This document shows, one piece after another, positions 4,316 to 62,801 of a DNA stretch of 64,000 nucleotides. The position numbers were made by a program, and so were the translations under genes. How positions within the stretch are numbered: the stretch's first letter is position 1; the number at the start of each line of letters is the position of its first letter. The notes beneath the pieces were generated by a model. That model made no database searches. It saw only the letters and a program-made list of their open reading frames with translations, and was not told where the DNA came from. Source of the stretch: Escherichia phage 215Ecol030PP; the sequence record PP328843.1. The stretch is one strand, 5' to 3'.

Positions 4316-4898
4316 ATTCTCTACATTCCTTAACAAATTTTTCTAGTAATAAATCACTTTCAAAATTAGGATTTTCCACTAATTTATCAAAAAGATCATC
4401 AACAATATTCAAGATATTTCTTTTACTAAGAATACGTTTATTTTCATGCTTCGTTTCAGAATCAACTATAAGAGTAAAGAAATATTTCTTGCCCTGAAAT
4501 TTTACAGTAGTATCAATATAAAATAAATTTGACTTTTGTAAATTACGTTTAAACCATGCGTCACTTAAACTATAAACACCGAGATAATCAAAATCGTCGT
4601 TTAAATAACAAACCGTCCATTCAGGAGAAATGAAATCAGTAAATTCAACATCAAAATCACACGTCAATGAATGAATTGATTCAATACTGTTAATAAGTAT
4701 TCCAGGACGTATTAAAGACTTTTTACCTCTGGAAAATCTTCCAGAAAGACTTTCATCAGTTTCATATGAAGACCCCCAATAGTAATTACGTCCTTCTGCC
4801 ATGCGTTTAAGAGCATTTAGTAATTGGTCTGGAACATCAACCTGTCTTTGGAACTCTTCAAACATTGAATTGAAATCACTTTGCATTTTCATTTTCAT
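4284..4898 (-). CDS. hypothetical soluble protein (204 aa), shares C-terminal KFVKECRE motif
   Basis: ORF track. Confidence 0.5.
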   Translation of the reverse strand: MKMKMQSDFNSMFEEFQRQVDVPDQLLNALKRMAEGRNYYWGSSYETDESLSGRFSRGKKSLIRPGILINSIESIHSLTCDFDVEFTDFISPEWTVCYLNDDFDYLGVYSLSDAWFKRNLQKSNLFYIDTTVKFQGKKYFFTLIVDSETKHENKRILSKRNILNIVDDLFDKLVENPNFESDLLLEKFVKECREYVKTITIPSK

Positions 4899-6330: not shown

Positions 6331-6804
6331 TTATTTGATTTGTTTAGCAGACCAAATGCGGTCTTTAATAATTTTTTGGATGTCTTCAACATACTCAAGA
6401 GAGTGAACATGTGGATTATCTTTGAAACTATAAGCACGGGCTAACTTTTGGCCTTCGGTTTTGATTACTAAAAGCTCTTTAAGGATAGCTTCATATTTGG
6501 AGATAATTCCTTTAACAATATTTTTCTCTTGTGTGACTTTAGGATCTGCTTTAGGAGCAGGTTTACCTGAAGCCTTTGCAAAAGCAGCTCCAGTAGCAAC
6601 TAAACTTTTCCAAGCCATACTAACTGCATTCCCTGTAAATCCTTCGGCTTTCATATCACGAGCAAATTGGAATCGTGATTCATCGGAAGCATCTTTATAG
6701 GAATATTTACCCGCGGCAATGGCAGCTTTTGCAACAGCTTGAATTTCAGTGCTAGATGCTTCATTTAACACCGCTTCATTTAAAAATTGAGTATATGATT
6801 TCAT
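6331..6804 (-). CDS. internal-protein-like protein with capsid-targeting-sequence-like N-terminus MKSYTQFLNE (157 aa)
   Basis: ORF track 6331..6981 begins with TTG inside upstream tRNA-like element; ATG at 6804 has SD AGGAAA; late promoter TATAAATA upstream. Confidence 0.6.
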   Translation of the reverse strand: MKSYTQFLNEAVLNEASSTEIQAVAKAAIAAGKYSYKDASDESRFQFARDMKAEGFTGNAVSMAWKSLVATGAAFAKASGKPAPKADPKVTQEKNIVKGIISKYEAILKELLVIKTEGQKLARAYSFKDNPHVHSLEYVEDIQKIIKDRIWSAKQIK

Positions 6805-6842
6805 CTTATTTCCTGTTTTAATTCGGGGTTTTAATATACTAA

Positions 6843-6850
6843 TATTTATA
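6843..6850 (-). promoter_or_regulatory. late promoter TATAAATA upstream of IP-like gene 6331-6804
   Basis: exact motif on minus strand between terminator hairpin and SD. Confidence 0.5.
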
Positions 6851-6852
6851 CT

Positions 6853-6879
6853 AAAAAGCCCCAACCTTTCGGTCGGGGC
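6853..6879 (-). terminator. intrinsic terminator at 3' end of the tRNA/small-RNA transcription unit
   Basis: near-duplicate of the 6295-6322 hairpin, T-run on minus strand. Confidence 0.55.
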
Positions 6880-7196
6880 TAAGCCTTGCGGCAACCTTGT
6901 CGGGGTTCCACCTGCTAAGGCAAGTGTTTGTACGAAACGCCGGGATTCGAACCCGGTTATTAAGCAGTTGACGCTACTCAATATTTTTAAAAGGCCATAT
7001 CTCGACCATATCCGAACGTTCCGTCAAAAACGCTACTCGGCTTATGGCAAAGATATTTCCTCGAATCGATAATTCGGTGCGCCGTTTCTGCTGTGATATA
7101 AGGGGGCATTAACAAAACATAAAGATTTATTAATGCCAGTCCTTAAACAGGGAACATCAGTCCGACGACTTGCCGGTAGCGACCCGGCTTCTTGTC

Positions 7197-58304: not shown

Positions 58305-58308
58305 CAAT

Positions 58309-58332
58309 GGGGACCGAAAGGTCCCCATATTT
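58309..58332. terminator. bidirectional terminator between gene 54 and convergent minus-strand gene
   Basis: GGGGACCGAAAGGTCCCC then T-run. Confidence 0.6.
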
Positions 58333-58623
58333 TTATTTACGGAATGAAATGAAAGCAGCAACTGAAGCAACTAAACTGTCTTCAATATAAACTTCAATTT
58401 TTACCGGAGCTTCTGACTCAAATTTACCTGTTACTACACCCTGAAAAATACTTTCAGTCTGTTCTGGCTTTGAAAAATTTTCAGAAGGAAAAATTCCAAA
58501 CTTTTTATCTGTTCCGAAAATTTTGATAAATTCATCATAAACCGCTTCGTTAAAAGCATTATCAGCAGGAATAACGCCTTCAACTACAAGTTCTTGACCT
58601 AAAAAGCGTAAAGAAGATTTCAT
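58333..58623 (-). CDS. hypothetical protein (96 aa; T4 alt.-x position)
   Basis: ORF track. Confidence 0.5.
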   Translation of the reverse strand: MKSSLRFLGQELVVEGVIPADNAFNEAVYDEFIKIFGTDKKFGIFPSENFSKPEQTESIFQGVVTGKFESEAPVKIEVYIEDSLVASVAAFISFRK

Positions 58624-58655
58624 TTTGTGTTCCTCATGTTATGTCAGTAAGACTA

Positions 58656-59042
58656 CTATAACACAACACGAGGGACTTGTAAACTACATTTTGAACTTTT
58701 TAGTACGCGTAATAGGCATGCGTCGATTTTATACTGTTTCATTGTTTGAAGAGCAGTATCAAAAACAGCATTAATGACGCCAATTGGATTTCCACCCAAG
58801 TTTCTAAGCTTAACCAGTGATAATTTCTCGTTGACACCTATCATTACGATATGCATCATTTTATCGCCTGGCTTAACGTTTTTATTTGTATCACCGCCAG
58901 AGGTGTATGTACAAAATCTAAATCCAGGAAGCACGCTTTCTTCGTCGGCTTGAATAGCAAAAATTTGAGGTATTTTATGCTTAGGATTTAAGTTAACAAC
59001 CGGCGCCGAAGCGCCGTCAAATAATTATGTAATAAGTTCCAT
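58656..59042 (-). pseudogene. diverged paralog of the alt N-terminal region, interrupted by in-frame TAA at codon 6 (MELIT*), open again from GTG at 58934 (92 aa)
   Basis: ~60% aa identity to Alt residues ~8-110 (PGFR.CTYTSGGDTN, DKMMHIV, QTM.QYKIDAC.LR.LKS); ATGGAACTTATTACATAA begins 3 nt after alt stop. Confidence 0.6.
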
Positions 59043-59045
59043 GAT

Positions 59046-61103
59046 TTATCCTTGAACGAACTTGTAAGGCATGTTTGCAATATCTATGCAAGACGCAATA
59101 ATTCCAAGAGATGATTCTACTTTCTGTTTAACATTTGATGAAACAAATGATGCAAAGTCAACTCTGTCTTCTATTTCAATATCACCTGTCATTGCAACTA
59201 CTTCACCGGTTTCCATTAAACGGTCTCCGTCATAAATTACCGATTCGGTGAGTTCTTCTGTGGTCATAACTTCAGCTTGAATAAGCTTGTTGTTAGTTCT
59301 AACTGTTCCATCGTTGTAAGATGCATCGGTTATTTTATTAACTTTGACCATTAATCCACGTGGCAAAATGACTTCCATTTCATTTGAAGGCGCTAAACTT
59401 CCACCAGGTAAAACAACATTGACCTTATCAGCCCCAGTAATAACCCATCCAATTCCAACTAAATTATCGCTAGAATTTACTAGTCCTTCATCAGTTTTAT
59501 CAATAGAAACACTTAGACGTTTTTCGTCTGGTAAAACACCTATAGATGAATCAGTCATCCAAGTACCAAAAATATTTGGATATAATGATGTTGACACAAA
59601 GTTTCTAAAATAAAAAACTCGATTTTTTACCATTGCTTCATATATTGAAGGTAACATTCGTTGTGAACGATACAAAGTAATACCTTTTGGTAATCGTTCA
59701 CCATTTTTAAAGGCTGAATCTAAATTATCAATGGCTTGTTCTATTTCAGGTGCTGTTAAAATACTTGTACGCTCATCTGGATTATATAATCCCAAAAGAG
59801 CATTATTTATGTCTACATATCCTGAACCTACATATTCACGAATTCCGCGTTTTTGCGCTGGCGTGTATTTAGATGAATCTTTATTTTCGACTATAGGATG
59901 TAATGACCATCCAGCGGTAAGAGCATATCCACGTAATTCTCTTCGAATAATCTTTGTTTTTATTGCATTCCAAGAATTTTGTACTAACTCATTTGCAGCA
60001 TCTTGGTTTAAATGCGAATGTCTGTTAATATTTCTTTCAAACCAGGCACCTTTATATTTTTCTAAAGTATCATCGACGATAGAAGCAATAGTTTCTAAAG
60101 TTTTTATTGAAGTAATAGATTCTTTTCGTAATTTTTCTAAAGCTTTATTTTTTATTTCTGCATTAATAATGGATTCTTTATCTTCAGGAATTATAGAAGC
60201 TTCTCTGAATGCCATCCCAGCTGTAACACTGCTAAGAGCATTCTCTAGTGCAAATCCTGAAGTAGAAATTACCGTTAATTCATTAGAATCAGAAATTAAA
60301 GGCGCGTCCGCTGGTTTATTTAATTCTGCCGCTGAAGCCTCAAATTTTTGAAACATCGGTGTTTCAAATCTAGAAGATTCCAATGATTGACTTTGTGCAA
60401 TTGCTCTACGGGAAATTTTAACTTTAACGATTACAGCTTGGTCAGAACGTTTATCATTTTCTTGTGCAATAGATGCTGCAATTGCCTCATTTTTAGTTAC
60501 TTGAGCTCCAGTATCTTTATTGATATAAACATCACCGACCTTCGATTCAACCTTAGTAAAGAGCTCGGTACTAATTTCCGGAACTCCTGGAATGTCTTCT
60601 AGTGATACATTTTTGCGATGTATAAGAATATATGCATACTTTTTATCATAATCCCAGAGTTCCTTAAGAAGGACGTATCTGCCACCTGAACGACTACGGA
60701 TAAGTCTATCAGCAATAACTTGAATTTGTCGAGCTTGACCAGCAGTTTTAGACTTAAGAATACGAAGCATACAGGCATCAATTTTATACTGACGCATCGT
60801 CTGCATTGCAACAGTAAAAACTGAATTGATATAATTAATTGGGCTTGGACCAAGACCTTTCAATTTAGCAATTGAACCTTTAGCGGTTAATGTAAAAGGA
60901 ACAATATGCATCATTTTATCGCCCATCTTTAAATCACGATTAGTGTCACCTCCAGATGTATAGGTACATAAACGAAAGCCTGGTTGTTCAATTGCATCAT
61001 CAACATGAACTGAAAAAATTTGCGGTATTTTCTTCTTTGGATTTAAGTTTGTAATCGGAAGAGTAGTATCTTCGTCAAATAATTCTGTAATTAGTTCCAT
61101 CAT
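59046..61103 (-). CDS. alt: ADP-ribosyltransferase Alt (685 aa), packaged virion protein
   Basis: length/synteny; late promoter TATAAATA upstream. Confidence 0.92.
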   Translation of the reverse strand: MMELITELFDEDTTLPITNLNPKKKIPQIFSVHVDDAIEQPGFRLCTYTSGGDTNRDLKMGDKMMHIVPFTLTAKGSIAKLKGLGPSPINYINSVFTVAMQTMRQYKIDACMLRILKSKTAGQARQIQVIADRLIRSRSGGRYVLLKELWDYDKKYAYILIHRKNVSLEDIPGVPEISTELFTKVESKVGDVYINKDTGAQVTKNEAIAASIAQENDKRSDQAVIVKVKISRRAIAQSQSLESSRFETPMFQKFEASAAELNKPADAPLISDSNELTVISTSGFALENALSSVTAGMAFREASIIPEDKESIINAEIKNKALEKLRKESITSIKTLETIASIVDDTLEKYKGAWFERNINRHSHLNQDAANELVQNSWNAIKTKIIRRELRGYALTAGWSLHPIVENKDSSKYTPAQKRGIREYVGSGYVDINNALLGLYNPDERTSILTAPEIEQAIDNLDSAFKNGERLPKGITLYRSQRMLPSIYEAMVKNRVFYFRNFVSTSLYPNIFGTWMTDSSIGVLPDEKRLSVSIDKTDEGLVNSSDNLVGIGWVITGADKVNVVLPGGSLAPSNEMEVILPRGLMVKVNKITDASYNDGTVRTNNKLIQAEVMTTEELTESVIYDGDRLMETGEVVAMTGDIEIEDRVDFASFVSSNVKQKVESSLGIIASCIDIANMPYKFVQG

Positions 61104-61136: not shown

Positions 61137-61154
61137 AAAGGCCCGAAGGCCTTT
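61137..61154 (-). terminator. terminator hairpin overlapping stop of gene 61153-61341, preceding alt late promoter
   Basis: AAAGGCCCGAAGGCCTTT then T-rich tract on minus strand. Confidence 0.5.
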
Positions 61155-61341
61155 AATAATCTAGTGGTAAGAGAGTACGGTATATTTCAAACTTTGGACC
61201 TTTTTCATAGGCATCAAATGTTTCTGTGAATTTATTATAAGCATATGCATCTACAAATTCGAGAATGACTTGTGATACAGAAGTAGAAACATCTCCACCT
61301 TCTTTTTGAGCAATGACAATTGTTTCTAAGTAAGCTTTCAT
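61153..61341 (-). CDS. hypothetical small protein (62 aa)
   Basis: ORF track; ATGA overlap with gene 30 stop. Confidence 0.5.
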   Translation of the reverse strand: MKAYLETIVIAQKEGGDVSTSVSQVILEFVDAYAYNKFTETFDAYEKGPKFEIYRTLLPLDY

Positions 61342-62801
61342 AGACCAGTTACCTCATGAAAATCACCAAATACATCTTCGAACGTATTAGCTTTAGTTTT
61401 ATCTTCGCGTAAACGAATCGCAATCGGAAGAAATAATTTAACGTAATCAGTGCGGCCATCAGATTTTAACCAACCGTTGCATTCGCACTCTAGAATTTTT
61501 CCAATATAATAATTTTGGTTTTCCATAATGCGAGTACGGTCAAGTTCATGCGATTTTACACCGGCTTTATCTTTTAAGCCTGAACCAGCATTTACTTTAA
61601 TTTTTCCACACTCTGATTCAAGAATAAATCCACCTGCTTTAGTAGGGTCTTTACGGTGAGGATAAATTCCTACAATTTTTAAATCAACATCAATTACTTC
61701 TTTAAATTTATAGAGATTTTTTGAACGAGCATTTTCCCATAATCCATCGATATTTTTGAGAATAATACCTTCAAGACCTTGGTCAATATACTTTTTATAA
61801 ATTACCTTAGCTTCATCTAGGTTATTTACTACTTGGTTTTCAATTAAAATTACTTTATCATAGCCTGATGTCATTTGTTCTAGTTTAGAAAAACGTACAT
61901 CATATTTCAAACGAAATGCAGGAAGACCGTATATTTCTACCAACGGAACATAGTCCCAGACCTGAAACTTCATGCATTGAGCTTCTTTTTCAGAAATGGT
62001 TCCCTTTAAAGATTTATTAGCGATTCCATTAGAAGTAGTACGTGATTCAGCTACTTCGGCGAATTCTTTGGCTTTACTAATTTCAGGATAAGCATCAAAA
62101 AGAAAATCTAGGCCTTCTGGCTCCTTTTTAACTTGCTCATGGTATACCAATTCGCCATCAATTAACACGCCTTCTGGATGAATCTGGCGGGCTTCAGCGG
62201 TCATTTTGATTAATTCTTCCTTAAGAAGATCTAATCCTAGATATTCATTACCGGCTCGTGATAAAAGACGAACATCATCTAATTCATCACCTCTGACTTC
62301 GGCAAAGCACCGAGCTCCATCAGCTTTTAACTGGGCAAAGGCTGGAAATTTGATATTCTTATTAATGCCTTTTTCATCATAAGAACTTGCAAGCATTTGA
62401 GGTTGTTCAGGAATTAAACCTGGCCAAACTTTGTTTGCAATAGATACCGAAGCACCGCATTCAAGGTCTCGCATCATCACTCGACGCAAAACTTCAACAT
62501 CATCTTTTTTACCATCGGTGATGTATCCAGTTAATTCCTCAATTGCCGCATTTCCAGTCAATTTCCGAGTAGCTAACGTGAATTCAATGAAGTCAAGCAT
62601 ATCGGTAAGAGTCAACATTCCAAAACTCTGGGTAGCAATACCAGGTTTAGGCCATTTCTTGATATAATACTGCAACCCACGAGAATAAGTCAGACGATAT
62701 ACTCGTTTAAGCAATTCATTATCTTTATTCTTTTCAAGAATTGCTTGCTTCTGCTTAGTTGAACCAATAGATGCTATTTCGTTCAGAATTTTAAGAATCA
62801 T
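61338..62801 (-). CDS. 30: ATP-dependent DNA ligase gp30 (487 aa)
   Basis: ligase motif I KADGAR; length as T4 gp30. Confidence 0.95.
   Translation of the reverse strand: MILKILNEIASIGSTKQKQAILEKNKDNELLKRVYRLTYSRGLQYYIKKWPKPGIATQSFGMLTLTDMLDFIEFTLATRKLTGNAAIEELTGYITDGKKDDVEVLRRVMMRDLECGASVSIANKVWPGLIPEQPQMLASSYDEKGINKNIKFPAFAQLKADGARCFAEVRGDELDDVRLLSRAGNEYLGLDLLKEELIKMTAEARQIHPEGVLIDGELVYHEQVKKEPEGLDFLFDAYPEISKAKEFAEVAESRTTSNGIANKSLKGTISEKEAQCMKFQVWDYVPLVEIYGLPAFRLKYDVRFSKLEQMTSGYDKVILIENQVVNNLDEAKVIYKKYIDQGLEGIILKNIDGLWENARSKNLYKFKEVIDVDLKIVGIYPHRKDPTKAGGFILESECGKIKVNAGSGLKDKAGVKSHELDRTRIMENQNYYIGKILECECNGWLKSDGRTDYVKLFLPIAIRLREDKTKANTFEDVFGDFHEVTGL

Follow-up and report, generated by a model that had tools for sequence, protein, structure and literature searches.

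What is the 387-nt segment that lies between alt and alt.-3 in Escherichia phage 215Ecol030PP, opens like alt itself and meets a stop at its sixth codon? We studied it within a 64,000-nt stretch of the phage sequence record PP328843.1 (hereafter, the window), where it occupies positions 58656-59042 on the minus strand. The segment is very probably a non-functional remnant, that is, a pseudogene and deletion scar, of a second full-length Alt-type ADP-ribosyltransferase gene. We name this second alt-like gene, which encodes 685 aa with an ADP-ribosyltransferase domain, altB.

An interrupted Alt-like frame between alt and alt.-3

The window belongs to a Tequatrovirus (T4-like) genome, in which DNA ligase (gene 30, 61338-62801), alt.1 (61153-61341), alt, the remnant and alt.-3 follow one another on the minus strand, and genes 48 and 54 lie on the plus strand, converging on the alt.-3 side. 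The upstream gene alt (59046..61103, minus strand; altA ortholog) encodes 685 aa with an intact ADP-ribosyltransferase domain (PF03496, E 8e-35). Its product is 98.5% identical to T4 Alt, and sequence comparison showed the gene to be orthologous to the first member of the tandem pair described below, not to altB. Downstream is alt.-3 (58333..58623, minus strand; 96 aa), a DUF5498 gene (PF17602, E 1e-64). The promoter scan placed a putative early-type promoter for alt.-3 at 58655..58683 on the same strand (TTTACA-17 nt-TATAGT with a TG upstream of the -10 box), and the final stop of the remnant, TAG, falls within its -10 hexamer. The identical promoter sequence precedes alt.-3 in phage PP01, there downstream of an intact altB, and in phage Lutter a promoter is annotated at this position.

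The remnant begins 3 nt past the end of alt: the alt stop TAA (59048-59046) is followed by ATC and then by an ATG at 59042-59040, from which the frame reads ATG GAA CTT ATT ACA TAA. This TAA, a GAA to TAA nonsense codon at position 6 (59027-59025), is followed by a frame that stays open for 122 codons and ends only at the TAG at 58658-58656. The whole 128-codon frame translates as MELIT, stop, LFDGASAPVVNLNPKHK...LRVLKSSKCSLQVPRVVL, stop. Translation thus bears out the first-pass annotation, which had noted that the alt start recurs 3 nt beyond the alt stop, is interrupted by TAA as its sixth codon and leads into an open frame.

In BLASTP, residues 7-128 of the remnant matched the Alt protein of the window with 67/111 identical residues (60%), 76% positives and an E value of 9e-46, residues 7-117 aligning with Alt residues 8-118 across a single 1-residue gap. 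This similarity is far beyond chance, and the ~60% identity to the Alt N-terminal region that had been proposed from the sequence is therefore real; the same value rules out a recent duplication artefact, as had been argued. The proposal of ~115 Alt-like residues stands up to codon ~116, but the last 12 codons of the open frame (SKCSLQVPRVVL, followed by the stop; 58656..58694, minus strand) are not Alt-like. Alignment with full-length altB identified this tail as the final 11 nt ahead of the altB stop codon together with that codon, all in the +1 frame, and then intergenic/promoter sequence.

In profile searches, the remnant matched phrog_23015, the family of T4 alt.-1 (E 2.6e-40), and phrog_15247, that of T4 alt.-2 (E 1.7e-48); the Alt family, phrog_802, was matched at profile positions 2-120 of 674 only. 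Since the N-terminal region conserved between Alt and altB reaches to about residue 240, the domain is cut short in the remnant. A Pfam scan of the remnant returned no match, and the ADP-ribosyltransferase catalytic domain PF03496 is absent. The Rfam scan yielded nothing credible, its one chance match (IRES_APC, E = 0.5) lying inside alt.-3.

Alignments with T4, fPS-2 and ELT1 identified the segment as the ortholog of T4 alt.-1 plus alt.-2 (NC_000866 123065-123450; P39495, P39494), which occupy the same locus between alt and alt.-3 on the same strand, show the same deletion junction and are ~97% identical at the nucleotide level. The two alleles differ in how the frame is broken. T4 has GAA at codon 6, and in it a run of five A (58879..58883 of the window, minus strand, where it is intact) is reduced to four, a -1 frameshift that leaves alt.-1 (61 aa) and alt.-2 (67 aa). 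In the window, codon 6 is TAA and the frame is not shifted; gene callers consequently report a 92-aa ORF with a GTG start (58932..58934; ORF 58656..58934, minus strand), which the first-pass annotation had correctly taken from the ORF list and which is also annotated in SG1, fPS-2, fPS-90, AV119 and EC128. The synteny of the locus is shared with T4, fPS-2, ELT1 and N2. The closest match in allele state is g192c of Yersinia phage fPS-2 (LR215722), which has the same 92-aa call, is 97.7% identical in nucleotide sequence with few point differences, and is annotated as 'similar to N-terminal of RNA polymerase-ADP-ribosyltransferase Alt, putative pseudogene'.

The full-length paralog and the deletion junction

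To place the remnant among its relatives, we searched 50,697 phage records by tblastn with the repaired 128-aa remnant sequence. Some records matched residues 1-128, and several hundred matched residues 1-116 only, at 97-98% identity; the latter matches sit inside genes annotated as Alt-like ADP-ribosyltransferases. Eight full-length copies were sampled (PP01, RB33, Sf22, RB3, Ec_MI-02, KNP5 and two IMG/VR contigs), and all eight share one layout: alt (684-697 aa), 3 nt, an intact 685-aa altB and then alt.-3. The ADP-ribosyltransferase exoenzyme domain (PF03496) covers altB residues 416-620. In all eight, the 116 N-terminal residues are 97-98% identical to the remnant. In the RB32-like, PP01 and Sf22 phages (for example PP01 YP_010073571, RB33 AIT74833 and Sf22 gp95), the second paralog also agrees with the remnant in its location, in starting 3 nt past the alt stop and in a hairpin described below. 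The paralog in these phages is intact, with 685 aa and PF03496, whereas the window lacks 1,699 bp including that domain. Annotators of RB33 and RB3 labelled the full-length gene 'alt.-2', and that of Sf22 is described as 'distinct from ... T4 Alt'.

The full-length altB and alt proteins are only 43-46% identical, which indicates an old duplication. In two contigs of more distant Tevenvirinae (L010 and L011), alt is likewise present as a full-length tandem pair (696-697 and 707 aa), so the two-gene state is itself old. The IMG/VR scan with the remnant gave only 8 loci, a number too small for population analysis, so individual GenBank phage records were sampled instead; a large protein database held 3 matches for the remnant and 5 for Alt residues 1-262.

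Split alt-type genes were also seen elsewhere. In a third contig (L009, 3501-5623; IMGVR_UViG_2974573174_000001), the second alt paralog, intact at 707 aa in L010 and L011, is divided into ORFs of 392 aa and 315 aa, by either independent decay of the second copy or sequencing error. The 323-aa 'ADP-ribosyltransferase' of Salmonella phage Melville (MF957259) was considered as an independent N-terminal-only protein and rejected, as it is part of the single alt of that phage (L037, 5001-7108), which is split into a 323-aa ORF with PF26846 ('Tevenvirinae_ADPRT'), a 38-nt gap and a 365-aa ORF with PF03496; either a frameshift or a sequencing error would account for the split.

The junction between the Alt-like part of the remnant and its tail was located by BLASTN of the window against PP01. 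Two collinear matches (positions 4443-4848 and 6539-6942 of the PP01 locus, L004) overlap by 9 nt in the query and are separated by a 1,699-nt gap in the subject. A repeat survey found the 9-mer CTAAA(A/G)AGT at altB gene offsets 339 and 2038, 1,699 nt apart, in 8/8 full-length genes, the pair being a perfect 9/9 match in five of them. Every sampled remnant (n=25) has a single copy, at 58695..58703 (minus strand) in the window, where it reads CTAAAAAGT. One copy in the remnants and two in altB is, on sequence grounds, a signature of deletion between short direct repeats, which agrees with the earlier suggestion of a recombination scar. PF03496 lies wholly inside the missing 1,699 bp, and as 1699 = 3 x 566 + 1, the tail is read in a shifted frame.

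The junction is uniform in its sequence: a single CTAAAAAGT followed by TCAAAATGTAGTTTAC is found alike in 25/25 sampled remnants, barring a 1-nt deletion in the A-run of F25 and a T to C change in the flank in AV121. Of ~500 phage records with the altB 5' region, 88 fully matched a junction-spanning query. Another junction-spanning query, of 901 nt, gave a similar figure: it aligned without interruption in 90 of 502 records. The truncated state is thus the minority and derived one, and T4 lies within it.

These observations are best explained as follows. The ancestral order, kept by most Tequatrovirus genomes, would be alt, 3 nt, altB (685 aa), the alt.-3 promoter and alt.-3. Illegitimate recombination between the two CTAAAAAGT copies (altB nt 340-348 and 2039-2047), or slippage from one to the other during replication, is likely to have deleted 1,699 bp in the lineage to which T4 and this phage belong, taking codons ~117 to ~680 and with them the whole catalytic domain. 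The 5' 116 codons would thereby have been joined out of frame to the last nucleotides of altB, so that the frame continues as far as the -10 box of the alt.-3 promoter, where it ends. Freed from selection, the truncated gene would then have gained different disabling lesions in different genomes, here the change of GAA to TAA at codon 6.

Lesions and relaxed constraint

We aligned 25 remnants, picked for diversity and not at random, with eight full-length 5' regions. TAA at codon 6 was present in 12/25 of the sampled remnants and the -1 frameshift (A5 to A4) in 13/25; four carried both (ELT1, pSe_SNUABM_01, Lutter and slur03), and another four (N2, SYGD1, FL23 and AV121) carried neither, their 128-codon ORF being open. 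Further lesions were a second 1-nt deletion, causing a frameshift, in F25 and a start codon changed from ATG to GTG in LH2. Overall, lesions were found in 21/25 remnants and in 0/8 full-length genes (Fisher p = 3.6e-5).

The polymorphisms in the 348 shared nt followed the same division. Those found only in remnants comprised 13 non-synonymous changes and one stop against 10 synonymous ones, and those that were shared or private to full-length genes comprised 3 non-synonymous against 25 synonymous changes (N:S 14:10 vs 3:25, Fisher p = 3.5e-4, in a small, non-random sample and with counts that ignore recombination). An excess of this kind is the pattern expected once purifying selection is lifted, and together with the out-of-frame deletion, the nonsense codon and the distribution of lesions it speaks for the decaying pseudogene that the first-pass annotation had listed among its readings. 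The ratio of 14:10 is still under the ~3.6:1 neutral expectation from site counts, a crude figure (binomial p = 0.026). Variants imported by recombination from full-length alleles outside the sample (8 of ~400 were sampled) may have lowered it, as may transition bias, and some residual constraint is conceivable.

Remnants and full-length genes have haplotype blocks in common, and the two main lesions are found in every combination (both, either one alone, neither), which indicates that the locus has been shuffled by recombination or has undergone recurrent slippage or deletion. One change, G33D, is private to the window.

Alternative readings, expression and annotation of the locus

The DNA may have been kept for an action in cis, with a hairpin as a 3' stabiliser or weak terminator of the alt mRNA and the 3' end bearing the alt.-3 promoter; this is compatible with a dead coding function, and we consider it unlikely. 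The hairpin (CGGCGC-UUCG-GCGCCG; 59001..59016, minus strand) spans remnant codons 9-14, lies 25 nt past the alt stop and has a perfect 6-bp GC stem closed by a UUCG loop in an otherwise AT-rich region (RNA fold, centroid -12.8 kcal/mol). Its stem is invariant in 33/33 sequences, the promoter-like site (10/12 match) overlaps the last codons of the remnant, and in T4 the transcript class changes across the region, from late (alt) through middle (alt.-1/alt.-2) to early (alt.-3). However, the hairpin lacks a U-run and the terminator scan gave no call there, the folding z-score of its 81-nt context is only -1.5, and it also lies within the coding sequence of intact altB. Conservation of the stem tells little, as almost every position in the first 75 nt is invariant. 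The hairpin is absent from alt itself and from the second alt paralogs of more distant phages, and no cis role is proposed for the ~300 nt between hairpin and promoter.

It is also rather improbable that the remnant still encodes a working small protein, either the 92-aa GTG product or a 67-aa, Alt.-2-like product from an ATG, which might mimic the Alt N-domain as a decoy or associate with Alt or the prohead core. The length of the frame left open past the TAA is in its favor, as is the status of the C-terminal 67 residues, which form the family phrog_15247 and are an annotated CDS in many genomes. The N:S of remnant-private variants lies below the strict neutral expectation, and in T4 the alt.-1 stop and the alt.-2 ATG share nucleotides (ATGA), which would permit translational coupling. 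Against it, the GTG is not preceded by a good Shine-Dalgarno sequence (GACGAAGAAAGC GTG) and the ATG (codon 62) only by a 3-nt AGG. The product would vary from genome to genome (128, 92, 61+67 or 67 aa), F25 having an altered C-terminus, and the C-terminal half has non-synonymous changes as well (K80R, L82M, G83S, P86Q, T96A and F111L). A weak structural hint points the same way: in an AlphaFold2 model of Alt 1-262 (mean pLDDT 53.6), the cut at ~117 falls inside an alpha/beta unit that reaches ~163.

The start of the frame bears on the same issue. The start context of altB is kept in the remnant (AAGGA, 6 nt, ATG), and ribosomes initiating from this preserved Shine-Dalgarno and ATG would make only the pentapeptide MELIT, which equals the Alt propeptide minus its last residue. 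The T4 protease gp21 cuts six N-terminal residues off Alt at the motif ITE-6 (PMC5694885), in agreement with the earlier statement that the Alt N-terminus takes part in proteolytic processing. It is thus precisely the P1 Glu codon that has become TAA, probably by coincidence, and the intact motif is absent from the remnant of the window. A GTG or ATG product would likewise be without the MELITE propeptide, the site of gp21 processing in Alt.

Expression data from T4 are in line with this. Transcripts of alt.-1 and alt.-2 were detected and classed as 'middle', but the entry for either protein is NA (not detected); both Alt and Alt.-3 were found, with alt transcribed late and Alt.-3 classed early/early (PMC9697503 Table S2). 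The missing Alt.-1 and Alt.-2 are weak evidence, as they concern the T4 allele only and small proteins are hard for mass spectrometry. A separately expressed packaged fragment, another of the readings first offered, is thus disfavored for this allele: its TAA replaces the P1 Glu, products starting downstream would lack the N-terminus, the lesions differ between lineages, and the T4 counterparts went undetected.

Several expression signals were tried as candidates and rejected. A T4 middle promoter with a MotA box at TGCTT (58929-58933) has unsuitable spacing to any TAnnnT, as judged by eye. For a translational bypass like that of gene 60, there is no matching pair of take-off and landing codons, the stop is not contained in the hairpin but precedes it by 8 nt, and the same hairpin occurs in stop-free intact altB. 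Programmed frameshifting at the T4 A-run does not fit with frameshift and nonsense alleles occurring in all four combinations.

Two counterpoints to a pseudogene should be mentioned. The 387-nt remnant persists in 88 records without further deletion, and the four phages with neither lesion have an open 128-codon ORF that includes MELITE, so that a truncated protein might be functional in some phages. It is improbable, in our view, that the remnant has been retained for an RNA element (the hairpin, defining or shielding the alt mRNA 3' end) or, in N2, SYGD1, FL23 and AV121, for a catalytically dead protein bearing MELITE; if such a protein were made, it would enter proheads and compete with Alt or modulate its loading.

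It is very improbable that the segment arose when the 5' end of the neighboring alt was duplicated in tandem and later diverged. The remnant adjoins alt, has the same MELITE-type start and is 60% identical to Alt residues 8-118, and T4 alt.-1 and alt.-2 have been called apparent paralogous duplications of alt (Nolan et al. 2006, PMC1524935). But the same site holds a full-length gene with a nearly identical N-terminus in most relatives, the 3' tail of the remnant comes from the 3' end of that gene, read out of frame, the junction consists of a single copy of a repeat found twice in it, and the split between alt and altB is much older, given their low identity and the tandem pair in distant contigs. 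The first-pass description of the segment as a paralog of the Alt N-terminus therefore stands, although it is a remnant of an independent full-length altB and not a copy of the adjacent 5' end. The same holds in comparison with T4 Alt (gpAlt), the packaged ADP-ribosyltransferase: the remnant belongs to the same N-terminal family (60% over 111 aa, MELIT identical) but is a paralog without the catalytic domain and with a stop in place of Glu-6 of ITE-6. Least probable of all is that the TAA is a sequencing or assembly error hiding an open 128-codon ORF: it is a single-base difference from T4 and N2 (GAA), but a substitution and not a homopolymer-length error, and a 55-nt allele-specific megablast, in which every 28-nt seed word spans the T, matched the allele at 100% in 44 phage records from different laboratories and hosts (phages of Escherichia, Salmonella, Yersinia and Shigella).

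In essence, the locus is already known from Nolan et al. (2006; PMC1524935) and from the fPS-2 annotation, and altB in this lineage is very probably an ordinary decaying pseudogene. An explicit reconstruction, with a full-length altB, a 1,699-bp repeat-mediated out-of-frame deletion and a spectrum of lesions, was not found in the searchable literature; what is added here is routine comparative inference. It has consequences for annotation: dozens of Tequatrovirus genomes carry 92-aa CDSs called 'RNA polymerase-ADP-ribosyltransferase' or 'hypothetical protein' here, which should be combined into a single entry marked as a pseudogene, and the same applies to T4 alt.-1 and alt.-2. Most wild relatives of the laboratory model T4 still have a second virion-type ADP-ribosyltransferase, altB, which T4 itself would have lost; this is relevant to studies of ADP-ribosylation in host takeover, defence and counter-defence. 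The locus is also a clear case in nature of a gene that lost the sequence between 9-nt direct repeats and then decayed in steps. Its import for biology at large is small.

A few observations concern the neighboring genes. The call for alt starts with ATGATG (MMELITE..., 61098-61103); T4 annotation and ITE-6 processing indicate that the second ATG is the real start, so that the MMELITE given in the first-pass annotation probably has one M too many. The alt genes of the window (59046-61103, minus strand) and T4 are mosaic relative to the first alt of PP01, N2 and ELT1: the first ~240 and last ~80 alignment columns are 95-100% identical, and the middle, including the ADP-ribosyltransferase domain, only 17-74%, a pattern that suggests allelic replacement of the catalytic part. 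Between the converging alt.-3 and 54, a hairpin with a 9-bp stem (ATGGGGACC-GAAA-GGTCCCCAT, 58307-58328) received a terminator call on both strands, and a bidirectional terminator is annotated there in other phage records. In T4, mutants with a C-terminal extension of Alt.-3 escape the CmdTAC defence system (PMC11618068), and the alt.-3 CDS of fPS-90 is slightly shorter, at 279 nt vs 291 nt.
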